From Alphaproteobacteria bacterium (lineage in GTDB: Bacteria; Pseudomonadota; Alphaproteobacteria; SP197), in NCBI GenBank assembly GCA_965228895.1, contig OZ245842.1, forward strand, positions 3,328,001 to 3,392,000: a stretch of 64,000 bases of DNA, in the 5' to 3' direction. A program made the position numbers and the translations under genes. Of this stretch, positions 4,076 through 11,309 are shown piece after piece. The first letter of the stretch is position 1, and every line of letters starts with the position of its first letter. Below the pieces are notes generated by a model. That model had not been told where the DNA came from. It was given only the letters and a program-made list of their open reading frames with translations, and made no database searches.

Positions 4076-4999
4076 TCAACCAAACGACGCTAGTCTGTGG
4101 ATCGGTCCGTTCAGCACGTGATTGACCCAGCCCCAGCGCATCGCGATCCTGCTTTCGTCCTGCTCCTCGAACGCGTGGCCCAAGGCCTCGAAGGCGCTGA
4201 CGATGTGATAGAGCAGGATGCGATGAGGCGACGGCTCGGCCTTCGCGGTCCGGGCGTAACGTGCGAGTGCACGCTTCTCGAAATCGCTGCCGAACGAGGA
4301 GAAATAGCGGAGATCCATGTTGCGGTCGTCGATGCCGACATCCTCGAAGTCGAAGATCGCGTTCAGCGCGCCGGTTGTCTCATCCACCGCGAAGTTGCCG
4401 GCCCAGGGATCGCCATGAACGACAACGAGATCATGATCCGGCACCGCGACGTCGCGGTAGTGGCTGAGCGTCAGGTCCAAGCCATCTCGCACACGCGGAT
4501 CGTCCAGCCGGCCTGCCAGCATGTCCGCCAACGCGTCGGCGCTGGGGAGAATGTTGACGCGCTTCAGCCCGAGCTCGCGGCGTTCGCCTTCCGAAAACGC
4601 GGTGTGAATCTCGGCGAACGTCCGGCCGAGGTCATCGGCCAAGCGGACGCCTAGCGCGGAGGCACCGATCTCCGGCTCCGGTCCGCCGCCGACCTGCATG
4701 CCGGCGATCTTCCGTCGGACCTGAATGGCGTCGTCGTCGCTGAAAAAGATGATGGGCGGCACCTGGACCGAGAGCCGCTCGGCGAGACGTCCCAGGACCC
4801 GTCGTTCACGGCCAAGCCGCTGAGTGGCTTCTTCGCTGTCGGCGACCAGCACCATAAGGTCGTCCGGCAGATGAGCGATCCAACGCCACCAACGAAACGA
4901 GAGTTGGATGTCGGACGGCGCGACGTCGATCGCAAAATTGTCACCGAGTTCCCTTGCCAACCAGTCTTCGGTGACTGTTACATCGCGATCGTTGGCCAC
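4076..4999 (-). CDS. Aminoglycoside phosphotransferase/choline kinase-like family protein
   Basis: HGDPWAGN (Brenner) and IFDFED motifs; GTG 4999 with AAGGAGG RBS. Confidence 0.8.
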   Translation of the reverse strand: MANDRDVTVTEDWLARELGDNFAIDVAPSDIQLSFRWWRWIAHLPDDLMVLVADSEEATQRLGRERRVLGRLAERLSVQVPPIIFFSDDDAIQVRRKIAGMQVGGGPEPEIGASALGVRLADDLGRTFAEIHTAFSEGERRELGLKRVNILPSADALADMLAGRLDDPRVRDGLDLTLSHYRDVAVPDHDLVVVHGDPWAGNFAVDETTGALNAIFDFEDVGIDDRNMDLRYFSSFGSDFEKRALARYARTAKAEPSPHRILLYHIVSAFEALGHAFEEQDESRIAMRWGWVNHVLNGPIHRLASFG

Positions 5000-5072
5000 A
5001 ACCGCCTCCTTGGAGGTTGCACGGAGTCTATCGCGCCAGCCGACCGGCGTCACGACGGCCGCGAACGCTACC

Positions 5073-5471
5073 CTACCCCGCCTTGCGTTCGTTCAGCACC
5101 GCCGCGGTCTTCAAGAGCGCCTCCATCAGACGCCGCTGCGCGGTCCTGGGATCGCAGCCGGCGATGGCGCCGATCTTCCACCAGGGCGTCCGGTTGGCGC
5201 GCGCCCAGGCGATGCGCGCGTCGTCGTCGTCCATCAGCTGCAGCCACGGGATCGCCTCATCCATGGCGTCGATGTCCCGGGGCGACGGCGTGATGCGGAT
5301 GCGCCCAACGCCGGCATAGCCATAGGCCTCCTGGGCGGCGTGCACGTAATCCGGCCAGTGGCTGCGGTGTTCGTGCGGGCCTTTGACCGCGGGCAGACGG
5401 CGCAGCGTGCGCGCCGCTTCACTCAGACGTTCCATGATCTCGGCGGCGGTGATGTCGTCGGGATGGGTCAT
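5073..5471 (-). CDS. Phage DUF6362-like protein (helical C-terminus resembling late-transcription regulators)
   Basis: ERLSEAARTLRRLP..SHWP..PSPRDIDAMDEAIPWL..IAWARA..PWWKI. ATG overlaps the TGA of the replication gene (ATGA). Confidence 0.7.
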   Translation of the reverse strand: MTHPDDITAAEIMERLSEAARTLRRLPAVKGPHEHRSHWPDYVHAAQEAYGYAGVGRIRITPSPRDIDAMDEAIPWLQLMDDDDARIAWARANRTPWWKIGAIAGCDPRTAQRRLMEALLKTAAVLNERKAG

Positions 5472-6415
5472 CCGTTCTCCACGGGTTTGTCTTGGGCGTT
5501 GGCAAACACCACGTCGGCGCCCCAGCGTTTGCGCAGCTTGGCCTCGATCGATGGCCCCGGCGGCGGGCCGGTCAGCGTCAGCGGCGCATACCCGACCGCC
5601 TCCAGGGGCGCGATCACCTCGCGGAACGTCTTGATGTTGCGCACGTCCTTTCGCATCAGCGCCTTCACCGCCATCCAACGCTCGGCGGGCGAGAGCGGCG
5701 GCGGTTCGGTTTCCGTGCGGCCGTCTTTTTCGGCAAAGCTTTGGGCGCGACGCAGCCACGCCTTCAGCCCGGCGCGCGGATCGGCCCAGCGCCGGCCGTT
5801 GGCGCGACTGTGATCGCAAAACTTTTCGATCTCCAGTTTCAGGTCAGCGTTGGGTGCCGCCGCCTTCGCCCAGTCGTGAAACGCCGGGTCGTCGGCGAGC
5901 GCGCCGAGCCCCGCCAATCCGTCATCACAAAAAGGGGGCGGGCCCTCCTCTTTTGGACTCTTGCTTTGTGGAGTCTGGGGTTCTGGACTCTGGGCTTCTG
6001 GATTATGGGTCTTAAGCGCCGTCCGATCGTCCCCATCGCTCACCTGTTTAGCCGCCGCCAGTTTGGGGTTGCCGCCCTTCTTGCCGTTGGCGCGCGCGGC
6101 GCGCAGGCGCCGGGCGTCGCGGATCATGCGCCGCGAAAAGACGGTGCCCTGTCTGTTGCGCGAGAAGACGCCGGCGGCCTCCAGCTCGCCCATCAGGTCA
6201 CCGATGCGCGCCTCGGCCATGCCGGTCAGCTTGGCGAGGTGGCTCGCGTCCAGCGCGCGGCCGTTGATCGTCAGGTAGCCGTACGGCTCGGCCTCGTGCA
6301 TCAGGCACAGGCACTCGATCCACAAGCCGCGCGCCTCCAACGAACAGATGCGCAGGGCCTGGTCGCCACGCCAGTCGGTCGGAAAGAACTTCATCCACGG
6401 TTGTGCCGCCGTCAT
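5468..6415 (-). CDS. Phage replication initiator-like protein (N-terminal wHTH, YdaU/DUF1376-like)
   Basis: PWMKFFPTDW..LRICSLEARGLWI..CLMHE..GVFSR..SRRMIRD..NGKKGGNP, followed by a low-complexity linker. Confidence 0.75.
   Translation of the reverse strand: MTAAQPWMKFFPTDWRGDQALRICSLEARGLWIECLCLMHEAEPYGYLTINGRALDASHLAKLTGMAEARIGDLMGELEAAGVFSRNRQGTVFSRRMIRDARRLRAARANGKKGGNPKLAAAKQVSDGDDRTALKTHNPEAQSPEPQTPQSKSPKEEGPPPFCDDGLAGLGALADDPAFHDWAKAAAPNADLKLEIEKFCDHSRANGRRWADPRAGLKAWLRRAQSFAEKDGRTETEPPPLSPAERWMAVKALMRKDVRNIKTFREVIAPLEAVGYAPLTLTGPPPGPSIEAKLRKRWGADVVFANAQDKPVENG
5954..6001. repeat. Iteron-like short repeats inside the replication gene (putative phage origin)
   Basis: TCTGG at 5974, 5982, 5989 and 5997 (7-8 bp period), plus TGGACTCT twice. 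Confidence 0.45.
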
Positions 6416-6717
6416 TTGGTCACCCCTTCCAGGTGACCCATGTCGCGCAGGTTATCCTTGCAGTGGCCGCACAGCCGGTTGCCGATGCCCTCGCTGCGGA
6501 ACAGACGCCGGCATGACAGGCATTTGCGTTTCGACGTCGCCGTCACCGACGGCCGCCGCGCCGGGCGTGGCGCCGGCTGGTTCTTCTTGAAGCGTTGGAT
6601 CTTGCGCGTGACCGATCCGGTGCTGCGCCTCAACTCTCTCGCGATGACCTTGACCGGCGTGCCGCGCGCCAGCAACCGCTCCAGGTGTTGAACTTCCTGA
6701 TCGTCCCAGTGTGGCAT
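6412..6717 (-). CDS. GcrA-like HTH protein with C-terminal C4 zinc finger
   Basis: MPHWDDQEVQHLERLLARG..IARELRRS..SVTRK resembles the GcrA N-terminus; CLSC-x13-CGHC. ATGA overlap with the replication gene. Confidence 0.65.
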   Translation of the reverse strand: MPHWDDQEVQHLERLLARGTPVKVIARELRRSTGSVTRKIQRFKKNQPAPRPARRPSVTATSKRKCLSCRRLFRSEGIGNRLCGHCKDNLRDMGHLEGVTK

Positions 6718-6800
6718 GGTGGTTTCGTTCCCATGAAGTCGCCCCCCGCCAGTTGCGGTCGCAAGGGTCCCCTGCCCGATTGCTTTTCTTATGAAGATGA

Positions 6801-6846
6801 GACGGCTGCCGGCCGGGAGGGGTAGTGGAGGCAACCGGCAGCCGTC
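6801..6846 (-). other. Strong intergenic hairpin with CCUCC-rich loop (possible sRNA or cis-regulatory RNA)
   Basis: 12-bp perfect stem GACGGCTGCCGG/CCGGCAGCCGTC; minus-strand loop UUGCCUCCACUACCCCUCCCGG. Confidence 0.5.
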
Positions 6847-6863
6847 CCTTAGGCGCGGCAGTT

Positions 6864-7262
6864 CTAACTGGGCCCGGAGCCACCCGCCCGGAGGCTCAAT
6901 CGACCGTCCGTCGCCTTCGTGCTGCGCCTGCGGAAGAACCCCGCGCGCGGCACCACGAGAACCTTGGCCTTGCGGCCCGACGCGTTCGCCCGCCGTGAGC
7001 CACTGTCGACGATGCGCCCACGACGGATCAGCTCCGAGCAACGCGGCCTGACCGTCAGCACCGAGAGACCCAGTCGCGTCGCCACCTCATCGGGCGTCAG
7101 ACCGTCGGAGAACCACAGGCAGTCGAACACCCGCTCCCTGATGGTCGCGATACCGACCTTGTCGGCGGCCTGCCGGCCGGCTCGCTCAGCCGCGGGATTG
7201 CTGGATTCCGATGGATCGGGGGTGAACCCCGGGGTTAAGGCTGGGCTGGTGTGTTGCGTCAT
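6864..7262 (-). CDS. Phage winged-helix DNA-binding protein (in the cro position)
   Basis: GLTPDEVATRLGLSVLTVRPRCSELIRRGRIVDSGSRR..SGRKAKV; divergent from the repressor. Confidence 0.75.
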   Translation of the reverse strand: MTQHTSPALTPGFTPDPSESSNPAAERAGRQAADKVGIATIRERVFDCLWFSDGLTPDEVATRLGLSVLTVRPRCSELIRRGRIVDSGSRRANASGRKAKVLVVPRAGFFRRRSTKATDGRLSLRAGGSGPS

Positions 7263-7275
7263 GATTCCCTATGTG

Positions 7276-7325
7276 ATAGGAATTACCCTATTGCGTCAAG
7301 GCCAAAACCTAGTCGCAATTCCTAT
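7276..7325. promoter_or_regulatory. Repressor operator cluster and leftward -35 element
   Basis: ATAGGAATTACCCTAT (7276-7291); degenerate CAAGGCCAAAACCTAG (7297-7312) and TAGTCGCAATTCCTAT (7310-7325); minus-strand TTGACG at 7299-7294. The -10 element is unclear. Confidence 0.7.
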
Positions 7326-7346
7326 TCACCAGAGCGACACTCAATC

Positions 7347-8054
7347 ATGGCCGAAACCCCACGGGAGCTGATCAAGCGGCTGGTCGAGGCGCGCGACAAC
7401 TTGACGCTTGCCGACCTGTCGCGCGCGCTAGGCCTGAACCACGCCTACTTCCAGCAATACGTCTCCGGGCGCTCGCCGAAGAAGGGCCTGCCCGAGGACG
7501 TGCGCGAGGGCGCGGCCCACCTGCTGGGCATCGATCCCGACCGGCTGCGCGAGAGCCAGCGGCTGCCGGTTGGCTTGGCGCAGGACGGCGAACACGCGCG
7601 AGCAGTGTCGGTGGTCACACAATCAACAAGAAGTGGCCCACCTAGCGGCGCAGTCTCGGTAGAGTATGGTTCTCGCGATTTCCCGATATACGGGTCGTCC
7701 CAAGCCGGCAATGAAGGGCAAGTTGTCGACTATGACCATGTCGTCGAATACCGCCACAGGCCGCCGGAGCTCATCGGCGTGAACGGCGCGTGGGGCATGT
7801 ATGTGGTCGGCGACAGCATGGAGCCCCGCTACTTCCACGGCGACCGTGTCCACGTGAACCCGCACAAGCCGGTCCGCGCGGGCCGCTTCGTCGTCATCGT
7901 GCGCCACGACAACACGGCGCTCGTCAAACAGTTCGTCGCCAAGAACGACAGCCGTTTCAAGCTGCGCCAACTGAACCCCAAGCGCGATATCGAAATCCCC
8001 GCTGACGAGGTTCAGGGCTGCTTTCTGATTGTCGGCGCGACCGACGCCGATTAG
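7347..8054 (+). CDS. CI/LexA-like repressor (HTH + S24 autopeptidase)
   Basis: N-terminal HTH (LADLSRALGLNHAYFQQY), Ala-Gly cleavage site (SQAG), catalytic Ser in VGDSMEP and Lys in ALVKQF. Confidence 0.9.
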   Translation: MAETPRELIKRLVEARDNLTLADLSRALGLNHAYFQQYVSGRSPKKGLPEDVREGAAHLLGIDPDRLRESQRLPVGLAQDGEHARAVSVVTQSTRSGPPSGAVSVEYGSRDFPIYGSSQAGNEGQVVDYDHVVEYRHRPPELIGVNGAWGMYVVGDSMEPRYFHGDRVHVNPHKPVRAGRFVVIVRHDNTALVKQFVAKNDSRFKLRQLNPKRDIEIPADEVQGCFLIVGATDAD

Positions 8055-8089
8055 CCCACAGCACTTGGCAAGTCGTAGGCTGTGGCCGC

Positions 8090-8119
8090 TTGACAAATAG
8101 GGTAAAACCTATCTACAAT
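8090..8119 (+). promoter_or_regulatory. Near-consensus sigma70 promoter with a repressor operator in the spacer
   Basis: TTGACA (8090-8095)-N18-TACAAT (8114-8119); operator ATAGGGTAAAACCTAT at 8097-8112. Confidence 0.8.
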
Positions 8120-8150
8120 CTCCCGCTAACGAGGACGTAGGGAGATCGCC

Positions 8151-8540
8151 ATGCCCGAGCCGTTGAGCCAGCCCAAAACCTGGACCCTTACCCTGCTGGA
8201 ACGCGAGTTGAAGGACGCGGCCGCCAGTCCGCCGCTGTCGCTGGCCCGCATGCGCGTGTTGCGCTGGCTGGCCGAGCTGGAACCGGGCGAGGCCGACATC
8301 CTGTGGGGCCGCGCCGTCGGCCTCACATGGACGGCGCTCGCCGCCGAGCGCGACGGCGTCAACGACCGCACCATCGCCCACCGCCTCTACCTGCCGGCGC
8401 TCGAACGGCTCAAGACCGCCGCGACGCTGGACGCCTTTGACCAGGTCGTCGCCGATTGCACCCACGCGCTCGTCACCGCCGGCGCACGGCTCGACCGGCG
8501 CTTCGACGCGCTTGACGATCAGACCGCTGACGCAGCCTAG
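8151..8540 (+). CDS. Second, divergent DUF6362-like protein
   Basis: VLRWLAELEPGEADILWGRAVGLTW..RTIAHRL..AL aligns by eye with AIPWLQLMDDDDARIAWARANRTPW..RTAQRRL..AL of 5073-5471; GGGAG RBS. Confidence 0.6.
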   Translation: MPEPLSQPKTWTLTLLERELKDAAASPPLSLARMRVLRWLAELEPGEADILWGRAVGLTWTALAAERDGVNDRTIAHRLYLPALERLKTAATLDAFDQVVADCTHALVTAGARLDRRFDALDDQTADAA

Positions 8541-8770
8541 CAAAGACGATGTGGCTGACCCAACTGAGGTCAGTTTAGCTCTTTGCTAGAGAATCGTTGG
8601 AACAATGCGAGCAATCAAAGAAAAACCCGGCTGAACGGGAATAGACTAGAGAATACGCCCTCCATACGATCAATCCATTGCGCATAATCCGGAAGAACTA
8701 CATCTAAATTGGGTATTATAGACTCAAAACTTCTCGCATAACGCGTATTACTGTTGCAGCATCATTCTTT

Positions 8771-9262
8771 ATGAACACTGCAACGTCAGAATATCCGCCG
8801 CTTCTCGCCCTCGGCTGGCATCCAATGACCATCGGTGGCCTTAGAACGCTCTGCGTTGATCAGATGCACTCGTCACTGACTCGTGCAAAGATCATGGACG
8901 GACTCGAGGCTGTTCTGGGTCAACTTAATTCAAGCGGCCTTAAAATGGAGATCTGGGTTGACGGAAGTTTTGTGACCAAGAAGCTGAATCCACAGGACGT
9001 GGATTTTGTTGCAAGGGTCGATGGCGCTGACTTTGACTCTGCATCACCTCAACAGAAGCAAATCTTGAGATGGTTGGCTAGCGACCTGAAGTCCCAATAC
9101 AAATGCGATACCTACTCGTTTATTGAATACGACAAGTCCCATTCCTTGGGCGAAGTCGGAGAATGGCATCGAGCCTACTGGCTAAGGCAGTTTGGTTTCA
9201 GCCGAAGTGTCAGAGCGAAGGGCCTTCCAGTGCTCACCCTCCCCTATGTTGTGATGCCATGA
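8771..9262 (+). CDS. Pol-beta superfamily minimal nucleotidyltransferase (DUF6932-like)
   Basis: YPPLLALGWHP N-terminus; IWVDGSFVTKKLNPQDVDFV (GS..DxD); candidate third acidic residue in CDTY; C-terminal W..QFGFSR..KG. Confidence 0.8.
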   Translation: MNTATSEYPPLLALGWHPMTIGGLRTLCVDQMHSSLTRAKIMDGLEAVLGQLNSSGLKMEIWVDGSFVTKKLNPQDVDFVARVDGADFDSASPQQKQILRWLASDLKSQYKCDTYSFIEYDKSHSLGEVGEWHRAYWLRQFGFSRSVRAKGLPVLTLPYVVMP

Positions 9263-10197
9263 CAGACATCGCACAAATTCTTCGAGATTTGCGGGATACC
9301 GAGGCAGAGCGACAGCGACTTCACGAACTCGCCCAGGACATGGCCGAGTACGAAGCCCTCGAAATCAACCTATTGTCATTGGAGAAACGTGAGAGATTAC
9401 TGAGAACCCAGTTTGAAGAAATCTCCGCTGTCGTCGATGAGAGCATCTGCGATTACAGGATTATCCCAGAACTACCTGATAGGTATCCACTTGCAGCTAT
9501 CGGCGCATGTTTGCAGAAGTTTCAAGAGCTCTTTTCGATTGTATTCGACGCTGTCAAGAACAAGCCAAAACTCCGAGCTCACATTTCGGCCGAAGTCCTT
9601 GACCAGTCCACCCTCAATTTCGGCTACGCATACAGTGGCTCACTCGGCTTTGCATTCACCGTTCCAAGCGAGAGACTCCTCCTAATCGAATCAGAGATCG
9701 ATATGGCCGCACGGCTATTTCTCTCCATTCTCAAATGTGAAAGCCCAGACGATATCAGGAAGCTGGTTCCAACTGTCGGAGTAGCGTCAATCACTCGCGC
9801 ATATGAACTCTCGCAGGTTCACGGCAGCTACGCATTCAATACTCAAGTGCAATGGAGAAAAGGCGGAGACGTAACTCACGATGTGATGATACACGCGGCC
9901 GATTTTGAGAGATTGAGAGCAATCATCGATGAGACGGGAGAAGAGGAAACAGAGACCTTCGAAATGACCGGCCGCCTTGTTGGATTGGACGTCGATACAA
10001 ACTATTTTCACATGACGTTTCCTGGGGCCGAAGATCTTAAGGGCAGCCTCTCAGACGGGTTCTTCGGAGGCTTGGCATTGTCGGTCCCCGGCCTGTATCA
10101 AGCCAATCTGATGCGAAAATGGAGGCTTCACTATTCTACGGGGCAAGAAGACGAGGATTGGATTCTTCTACAACTACGACCGATCTCGTCAAACTAG
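9259..10197 (+). CDS. Uncharacterised partner of the nucleotidyltransferase (coiled-coil N-terminus, beta-rich C-terminus)
   Basis: ATG 9259 overlaps the NTase stop (ATGA); 312 aa; lower GC than the flanks. Confidence 0.75.
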   Translation: MTDIAQILRDLRDTEAERQRLHELAQDMAEYEALEINLLSLEKRERLLRTQFEEISAVVDESICDYRIIPELPDRYPLAAIGACLQKFQELFSIVFDAVKNKPKLRAHISAEVLDQSTLNFGYAYSGSLGFAFTVPSERLLLIESEIDMAARLFLSILKCESPDDIRKLVPTVGVASITRAYELSQVHGSYAFNTQVQWRKGGDVTHDVMIHAADFERLRAIIDETGEEETETFEMTGRLVGLDVDTNYFHMTFPGAEDLKGSLSDGFFGGLALSVPGLYQANLMRKWRLHYSTGQEDEDWILLQLRPISSN

Positions 10198-10619
10198 CCA
10201 TTCAAGAGAAACTGTCGGCCACACTCTCTATAACTCGAACATGGTTTGGTCTGTTGTCTTCGGTCCCAACTAACATTGAACAGCCGAAGCCCCAGTGAGC
10301 ACTGAGGCAGCAACGGGCGAAAGCCGCAGCGGTGTGGTCAGCCTAGGAGTTCGCGAGAAATGCTTCCTGCCATTTCGGCTAACCGCAAAGACGCCGCAAT
10401 CACGCTTCTGACGTGGCGCTAGGCTAAACCTCTGCCCCCAGAGACTCACCTATCCGCAATAAGGTGTAACCCTTCGTAGTGCGCGACCTCTGAGCTGGGC
10501 TCGCTATCCTTTCTGTCGTTGAACGGCCCTTGCCAGGACGCCTCCGATAACCGGCAGGCATGGCAAGGATGCCGGGAAACACCGCGCGCAAGACGCGGTG
10601 ACCTGGGAGGAGAGACACC

Positions 10620-11108
10620 ATGGCGATGACAGAGCTCGCCGCGGCGACGCGGCGCGAACCCGATCCTTATGGCCTGAGCGGATGGCTGATCCTGGTCATC
10701 GTCTCGATCGTTGCCGGGCTCGCCTGGAACCTGTTTGTCCTCAAGGAAACCACAAGTTTGTTCACAGGCGCGGAGGCACAGGTCTTCCTGGCCGCCGCCG
10801 AGCCCGCGCACTATCAGCTCTCCATGTTGGAGATCTTCGTCAGCGGCTGCCTCGTCCTCGCCAACCTCGTCTTGATCGGCATCTTCTTCACCCGCCATCG
10901 CCAGTTTCCGGCCGCGTTCATCATGGTCGCGCTGTTCTCGGTCGCGTGGATCATCACCGACGCGCTGCTCTACCGGTCGATCTTTCCGTCCGACCCGCTG
11001 TTCGACGTCCGCAGCGCCCACGAGTTCGCCCGCGCCGCCGTCTTTGCGTTGATCTGGGTGCCCTACATGCTCGTCTCCAAACGCGTGAAGGCGACGTTCG
11101 TCCACTAG
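10620..11108 (+). CDS. DUF2569-like membrane protein
   Basis: GLSGWLIL N-terminus, about 4 TM helices, WVPYMLVSKRVKATFV C-terminus. Confidence 0.75.
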   Translation: MAMTELAAATRREPDPYGLSGWLILVIVSIVAGLAWNLFVLKETTSLFTGAEAQVFLAAAEPAHYQLSMLEIFVSGCLVLANLVLIGIFFTRHRQFPAAFIMVALFSVAWIITDALLYRSIFPSDPLFDVRSAHEFARAAVFALIWVPYMLVSKRVKATFVH

Positions 11109-11214
11109 AGCAGATCCCATTTTGATGGGATCTGCTCTACTCATAGATAGAGAACGGATTCACGTGGTGAGGTGGAACCGCTGAAGGGTTCCACCTCACC
11201 ACGATCAGCTCTAA
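11105..11214. repeat. CIR/RIME-like intergenic repeat, copy 2 (110 bp, inverted relative to copy 1)
   Basis: TAGAGCAGATCCCAT-TTTG-ATGGGATCTGCTCTA hairpin plus CGTGGTGAGGTGGAACC..GGTTCCACCTCACCACG hairpin; GATTC site; overlaps the TAG of the upstream gene. Confidence 0.85.
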
Positions 11215-11309
11215 CGCGACTTGCCTCATGGTGCGGTGCCGACACCCATGGACGCGGTGGCGTCCCGGTTGTTAGGTTCGCTTCATAGCGCACACACCGG
11301 GATTCCTTC

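Follow-up and report, generated by a model that had tools for sequence, protein, structure and literature searches.

In the type VII toxin-antitoxin (TA) system MNT-HEPN (MntA-HepT), the minimal nucleotidyltransferase (NTase) MntA AMPylates its partner HepT. AbiE and MenAT are two-gene TA or abortive-infection (Abi) cassettes, whose NTase toxins, AbiEii and MenT, nucleotidylate tRNA ends. Here we analyse a gene pair, A and B, that bears comparison with these systems and lies in a 64,000-nt stretch of alphaproteobacterial DNA (the window; assembly GCA_965228895.1, contig OZ245842.1, forward strand 3,328,001 to 3,392,000). Its protein sequences place the pair as a divergent alphaproteobacterial member of PDC-M63, a candidate system of PADLOC-DB v2. 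According to the available text of the preprint that introduced them, PDCs are 145 untested 'phage defence candidates', chosen as cassettes embedded in BREX, DISARM or type I restriction-modification (RM) loci (Payne et al., bioRxiv 10.1101/2024.01.29.577857). Within PDC-M63, the pair gp42/gp41 of Escherichia phage mEpX1 has the same gene order, overlap, sizes (~160 + ~310 aa) and placement behind a repressor; in comparison, the window's pair is a distant alphaproteobacterial branch, and its host element is a remnant rather than an intact prophage. We favour, at a probability of about 0.55, the view that the pair is repressor-proximal cargo that would be expressed in lysogens as a TA-like or abortive-infection module. 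Its parts are:

8771-9262, plus strand: gene A, a putative minimal nucleotidyltransferase of 163 aa (DUF6932 / PDC-M63A)
9259-10197, plus strand: gene B, the 312-aa partner (PDC-M63B), with its ATG start at 9259
9259-9262, plus strand: the 4-nt ATGA stop/start overlap of A and B, junction sequence ...GCC ATG A..

This layout of open reading frames (ORFs), proposed in the original prediction, agrees with the coordinates and with the junction sequence, and through the ATGA overlap the two genes are predicted to be translationally coupled. Protein A matches the PADLOC model of PDC-M63A, PDLC04744, at 1.9e-31 (107 bits, profile positions 4-148 of 152), as well as PDLC04745 at 1.8e-9, and protein B matches the PDC-M63B model PDLC04749 at 5.3e-5. 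PDC-M63B models are also matched by all 25 of 25 relatives of B (best 2.2e-14), and A and B are adjacent on one strand, as PDC-M63 requires. The original prediction had called the system undescribed and had named a match to an already named system as its refutation; since both proteins match models of PDC-M63, that claim falls. The pair itself is no discovery, being already searchable in PADLOC, and the function of PDC-M63 is still only a candidate one. A literature search around minimal NTases in prophage phage defence returned no paper naming the pair, and the name 'DUF6932' was not met in the literature searched.

Protein A is the more readily interpreted of the two. Its sole Pfam family at E<=1 is PF22014 (DUF6932, 4.5e-23), and it matches phrog_9194 at 2.7e-26. 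An alignment of 37 relatives shows no variation at G65, S66, D76 or D78 and at least 90% conservation of D113, so that the GS-x(9-11)-DxD signature of minimal NTases and its third carboxylate are present as G65-S66 ... D76-x-D78 ... D113; the motif DGSF-x8-DVD, noticed earlier, is there as D64-G65-S66-F67 ... D76-V77-D78. A C-terminal block, YW.RQFGFSR..KG, is conserved in the same alignment. The AlphaFold model of A has a pLDDT of 94.6, and of the 48,161 representative solved chains with which it was compared, no more than three reached Z>=5, each of them a minimal NTase: 2rff (6.0), 1ylq (5.3) and 8xeh_E (5.0), the last being the MNT chain of a HEPN-MNT complex. The folds ranked next were HI0073 (Z 4.8), Pol mu, ANT enzymes, CCA-adding enzyme, TdT, poly(A) polymerase and CD-NTases, and Foldseek returned the same families with weak E-values. 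Neither the model of A nor that of B has a Foldseek match in the PDB at E<=1e-3, and neither protein had a significant match when its sequence or profile was searched against solved structures. A sound reading of motif and model together is that A is a catalytically intact minimal Pol-beta-fold NTase, predicted to be active.

The two genes travel together. We looked for related loci in genome, viral and metagenome contigs, the metagenomes being scanned with a 25-sequence alignment, and in 401 genomes from the class. Seven distinct loci have DNA upstream of the B homolog (L001 (= L017, L029), L002, L003, L013, L014, L015 and L019 (= L030); L016, cut at its contig end, was left out of this count), and a homolog of A lies directly 5' of B on the same strand in 7/7. 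The check proposed at the outset, that homologs should stay paired, thus came out in favour of a joint unit. Of eight loci, the window among them, six have the ATGA junction; in another the two genes overlap by 1 nt, and in the last they lie 2 nt apart. The A-A and B-B identities of the seven loci co-vary (r 0.76, over 21 non-independent pairs).

At one of these loci, L015 on a 2.2-kb metagenome contig, the B homolog (1064-2004) runs not in one frame but in two, 1064-1894 and 1816-2004; either this copy has a frameshift or sequencing introduced the break. Four of the seven loci (L001, 7172-7495; L003, 604-846; also L013 and L015) have directly 5' of A a small basic ORF of ~80 aa, with a C-terminal half rich in Lys, Arg and Gly, which may be an optional third component or a regulator; the window lacks it (tblastn E 0.35 at best).

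Within the class the pair is rare. B occurs in 3/401 sampled genomes and DUF6932 exceeds the Pfam cut-off in 12/401, the window's genome being counted in both figures, and that genome holds a single copy of B; tblastn with B found nothing in phage or plasmid collections. This distribution is sporadic, as expected of mobile cargo, and we read the cassette as horizontally acquired because of its low GC, its presence in 3/401 genomes and its single copy.

The base composition and the ends of homology outline the segment that carries the pair:

8516-10428, strand not applicable: variable low-GC cargo segment (swap slot), bounded by the GC drop and by the limits of blastn homology

GC is 0.486-0.500 across 8501-10000, averaged over 500 nt, versus 0.62-0.69 on either side. 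The lower GC of the pair, remarked on before, is therefore real, while the figure of 43-45% first given for it, counted on two 60-nt lines, is below the 500-nt averages. Homology to two genomes of the same genus, G001 and G002, ends at 8515 and resumes at 10429-10431 (blastn); the flanks and the phage-like module at 5071-8515 have 87-88% DNA identity in both. Between these borders each genome holds something else:

Window's genome, slot of 1913 bp: the PDC-M63 pair
G001, slot of 1944 bp: AbiEi (PADLOC 4.2e-92) and the NTase toxin AbiEii (9e-118; Pfam PF08843 2.1e-41)
G002, slot of 1220 bp: one low-GC ORF of 329 aa, phrog_32483 (1.1e-29), with no Pfam or PADLOC match

One site in three genomes thus has three different cargoes, one of them a known abortive-infection/TA system. 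This natural three-way swap at one chromosomal slot, between AbiE, PDC-M63 and an unknown gene, is the strongest contextual argument for a defence or TA role at the locus. The ORF in the slot of G002 (L012, G002:C18, 896-1885, minus strand of the locus) is a candidate cargo gene in its own right.

Upstream of the slot, the DNA is of phage origin:

7251-8054, plus strand: CI/LexA-like repressor gene with helix-turn-helix (HTH) and S24 peptidase (Peptidase_S24 6.7e-14; phrog_4 1.3e-23)
8151-8540, plus strand: small DUF6362-like gene (DUF6362 1e-6, below the Pfam cut-off; phrog_6836 7e-4)
5073-8540, strand not applicable: phage-derived regulatory/replication module (prophage remnant), from phage-family matches and 87-88% identity

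The repressor gene precedes the pair in the same orientation, and the DUF6362-like gene lies between repressor and slot, its final ~25 nt falling inside the variable segment. Other phage-family matches in 5073-8540 are to phrog_1123 and, weakly, to replication-initiator families. The pair had been described as prophage cargo, and the phage-family genes bear this out in part; what accompanies it is only a 3.5-kb remnant, beside which no integrase or structural genes were seen. The 64-kb window has no tRNA, no att-like direct repeats flank the island, and a scan for promoters and terminators gave nothing above shuffle level. DUF6362/phrog_6836-like genes flank the repressor region on both sides, at 5073-5819 (minus strand) and 8151-8540 (plus strand). 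A viral contig that carries a PDC-M63 pair (L003) has nearby an ORF resembling DUF6362 by eye and a resolvase-like ORF, which hints at an alphaproteobacterial phage lineage shared with the window.

Placement behind a repressor recurs in phages. Homologs of A are found in eight phage records, namely mEpX1 (three), PhiR30_1, Erwinia vB_EhrS_59 (two), Streptococcus MissE1 and the satellite Javan304; A is 33% identical to its mEpX1 homolog. The annotation of mEpX1 and vB_EhrS_59 places after cI first the A homolog, then an overlapping gene of 933 nt (310 aa) and then N. The position after cI is the place of rexAB in lambda. The window's pair resembles rexAB as a two-gene cassette co-oriented with the repressor gene and just downstream of it, a likeness of position only; the mechanisms are presumably different. 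What matters here is that a rexAB-like placement behind repressor genes recurs in distant phage lineages.

Protein B is harder to place by name. It has no Pfam family at E<=1 and no NCBIfam family, and among 70 relatives no Pfam family stands out, the most frequent being hit in 4/70, which is noise level. By sequence it is not an orphan, as 577 cluster representatives among 1.84 billion match it at E<=1e-3. The model of B (pLDDT 94.6) has three parts: a helical hairpin (residues 2-58), an alpha/beta domain (61-225) containing the near-invariant G127-S128 and the GSLGF stretch (127-131), and a beta-rich C-terminal domain (227-308), with an acidic stretch at ~224-235. This is the anatomy that had been guessed from the letters: an N-terminal coiled coil, a central GSLGF, an acidic linker and a beta-rich, OB-like C-terminus. 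Residues 227-312 superpose on the OB folds of CusF (2qcp, Z 9.0, rmsd 2.9, 73 residues), the single-stranded DNA-binding protein (SSB) Rim1 (Z 8.8, 77 residues) and bacterial SSBs (Z ~7), and the matches span nearly whole target OB domains. The C-terminal domain of the model thus qualifies as an OB fold, an assignment of fold only that implies no ligand. The sole residues invariant in 70 sequences are Y66, Q89, G174, F250 and G262, and the 70 aligned relatives contain no conserved Rx4-6H column pair, in keeping with the earlier remark that B has no RxxxxH motif of HEPN proteins. Because its invariant residues are limited to these five and it lacks that pair, and with it any recognisable enzyme signature, B is probably non-enzymatic.

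By structure, B resembles phage proteins. In Foldseek its whole model aligns with an uncultured siphovirus's DUF6575 protein (E 1e-14 over 281 columns, TMq 0.55) and with two other phage proteins at ~1e-8; DUF6575 clusters (TM 0.53-0.59) also count among the closest neighbours of the Atlas model of a B homolog (P0016). In sequence, PF20215 (DUF6575) has no match to the window's B at E<=1 and is absent from the 25 most-hit families of the 70 relatives. The available text of Vassallo et al. names DUF6575 as one of the domains present in its validated defence systems (PMC9519451); 'DUF6575' is absent from the text of the supplement.

Set beside described systems, the pair shows both likenesses and differences. 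As in MNT-HEPN, the gene of a minimal NTase lies upstream of its partner and overlaps it, and the best folds of A are MNT proteins; however, B has no Pfam HEPN match, no conserved Rx4-6H and a different, three-domain fold. The YW.RQFGFSR..KG motif of A may also set it apart from MNT-HEPN. The likeness to AbiE and MenAT is that of a two-gene NTase cassette for Abi or TA, and AbiEi/AbiEii fills the identical slot in G001. Yet A has no match to AbiEii (PF08843) or to any PADLOC AbiEii model at E<=1, the order is reversed, the NTase coming first here, and the downstream B has no match to the winged HTH of AbiEi or to any HTH.

A further link comes from the other partners of DUF6932. The 401 genomes hold nine other DUF6932 genes over the Pfam cut-off, and for each we considered the adjacent downstream frame on the same strand, read from stop to stop:

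L022, L023 and L024: Xre-HTH plus M78 peptidase, PD-Lambda-2_B at 1e-77 to 1e-83
L025 and L026: a similar HTH plus M78 protein, with weaker scores
L020: a short HTH protein
L027: a distant B relative (hhalign probability 93.5%)
L028: a doubtful B relative (probability 19%)

The downstream frame of L021 was also examined; it looks like a wrong reading frame, and no partner was assigned. An Xre-HTH plus M78 peptidase is therefore the downstream gene in 5/9 of these loci. In the part of the source available, PD-lambda-2 is a validated TA-like abortive-infection system, in which the Xre-peptidase is toxic alone and is rescued by an upstream HigB-like protein (Vassallo et al., 2022; PMC9519451). 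Elsewhere, then, DUF6932 takes the place of the HigB-like component before an Xre-peptidase, while the B of the window is no Xre-peptidase, matches no PD-lambda-2 model and has no third gene with it. Because both B-type and Xre-peptidase partners lie downstream of it, DUF6932 seems to occupy the upstream-partner position in two kinds of TA-like defence modules, and its pairing with PD-lambda-2B-like Xre-peptidases links the untested PDC-M63 to validated TA-like defence.

Taken together, these data lead us to prefer a TA-like or abortive-infection module with A under the control of B, because A is the sole recognisable enzyme and is predicted to be intact, and B looks like a sensor or adaptor. 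The pair would be expressed in a lysogen-like state. In the complex that they would make, B would hold A in check or steer it; once the hairpin or the OB domain of B had sensed a phage cue, A would transfer a nucleotide to a target, and growth would cease. Like the NTase toxins AbiEii and MenT, A might modify tRNA 3' ends, or it might modify B itself, as MntA modifies HepT, in which case the invariant Tyr66 and the near-invariant Ser128 are candidate acceptor residues. The confident models of both proteins point to residues that can be tested, D76 and D78 in A and Y66, S128 and the OB domain in B. The proposal of a new NTase-based TA or abortive-infection module has therefore survived in part: co-conservation, coupling, the AbiE swap slot and the cI-adjacent phage loci speak for the module, and it is not new, nor did a deletion test on homologs show defence.

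That test is one of several points that weigh against our preferred view. According to the accessible part of the study, removal of PDC-M63AB from the E. coli NILS69 prophage in which it naturally resides left infectivity unchanged for 10/10 phages (PMC12409345), and this is the only published experimental test of a homologous pair that we found. The match of B to the PDC-M63B model is itself weak (20.4 bits), and the profile of B against gp41 of mEpX1 is collinear but weak too (hhalign probability 40.5%, E 2.9e-4, 210 columns). The acidity of the OB domain of B speaks against classical nucleic-acid binding. The phage module is an old remnant, conserved like the chromosome around it (87-88%), and expression from a repressor operon is therefore an analogy only. 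Finally, A scores low in the fold searches (Z 6.0 with rmsd 4.7 at best; Foldseek E 0.065); we read A as an active minimal Pol-beta-fold NTase despite these scores, because the list of folds is uniform and the catalytic motif intact.

A more ambitious proposal, which we regard as possible and hold only tentatively, is that the pair represents a new class of NTase immunity, a minimal NTase coupled to a sensor that is itself no enzyme and has an acidic OB domain, with DUF6932 as a general, exchangeable effector shared with PD-lambda-2-like Xre-peptidase systems. The pI of B is 4.75 and that of its OB domain 4.42, the family median for this domain being 4.99 (n=70). A DNA-mimicking acidic surface of the OB domain or hairpin could then recognise a phage protein or a DNA-binding factor. 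The sensor B would subsequently be nucleotidylated at Tyr66 or Ser128, in a type VII-like switch, or would free the NTase to act on tRNA.

It is also conceivable, if unlikely in our judgement, that the pair is purely an addiction module that stabilises a plasmid or prophage and has no anti-phage role, one protein poisoning cells that lose the cassette and the other neutralising it. The coupled two-gene architecture, the sporadic and mobile distribution and the TA-type Xre partners of A relatives would all suit such a function, and so would the single published deletion test, which, in its available text, showed no defence (PMC12409345). However, the same text reports no difficulty in deleting the homologous pair, unlike what a classical antitoxin would lead one to expect (PMC12409345). 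Besides, the cassette sits in a chromosomal remnant where nothing is left to stabilise, and in a sibling genome the slot carries AbiE, a known Abi system.

We give similarly low odds to a lysogeny-associated 'moron' that serves the phage, either in induction and repressor stability or by excluding close relatives (Rex-like, superinfection exclusion). Such a role would explain why the pair comes right behind cI in two lambdoid phages and behind a CI-like repressor in the window, and why A and B homologs are found in temperate phages and in a satellite. But many related loci have no repressor beside the pair, that of L002 following a lysis cassette instead, and the PDC list was, in the available text of the preprint, drawn from cassettes embedded in BREX, DISARM or RM loci (bioRxiv 10.1101/2024.01.29.577857). 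If exclusion is counted as defence, moreover, this proposal overlaps with the TA-like or abortive-infection module that we prefer.

Signalling of the CBASS or mCpol type, with A as the synthase of a nucleotide second messenger and B as a new kind of receptor or effector, strikes us as very improbable. CD-NTases do turn up in the fold search with A (Z 4.0-4.2), and A has a marginal profile match to a CD-NTase (E 0.46). Nevertheless, the 163 aa of A align to the whole of ~100-residue minimal NTases and only to the core of CD-NTases of 270-370 residues; no CBASS model of PADLOC matches A or B at E<=1, and B has no recognised effector or nucleotide-sensor domain. Least credible of all is an ANT/Lnu-like role for A, nucleotidylating small molecules (antibiotics), with B as unrelated cargo, since the structural neighbours that suggest it (ANT(3'')(9), AAD(9), LinB and ANT(4'), Z 4.1-4.7) match only in the shared Pol-beta core, solved ANT, AAD and Lin chains have 250-265 residues versus 163, no NCBIfam resistance model matches, and the strict coupling to B in 7/7 loci argues for a joint function.

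The surroundings hold two further features. Adjoining the phage-like module is a second variable spot, with an APH-family phosphotransferase gene at 4076-5053 (minus strand) that has 82% identity in G001 and is missing in G002, where the flanking matches are 9 bp apart. On the other side of the pair, a palindromic element of ~85-125 nt lies at 11101-11225, between DUF2569 and hydantoinase genes. An inverted copy of it (84%) is present at 2697-2773, and several 84-nt copies (86-89%) are scattered across the window's own genome and both genomes of the same genus, so that it looks like a dispersed repeat of the REP/MITE kind.

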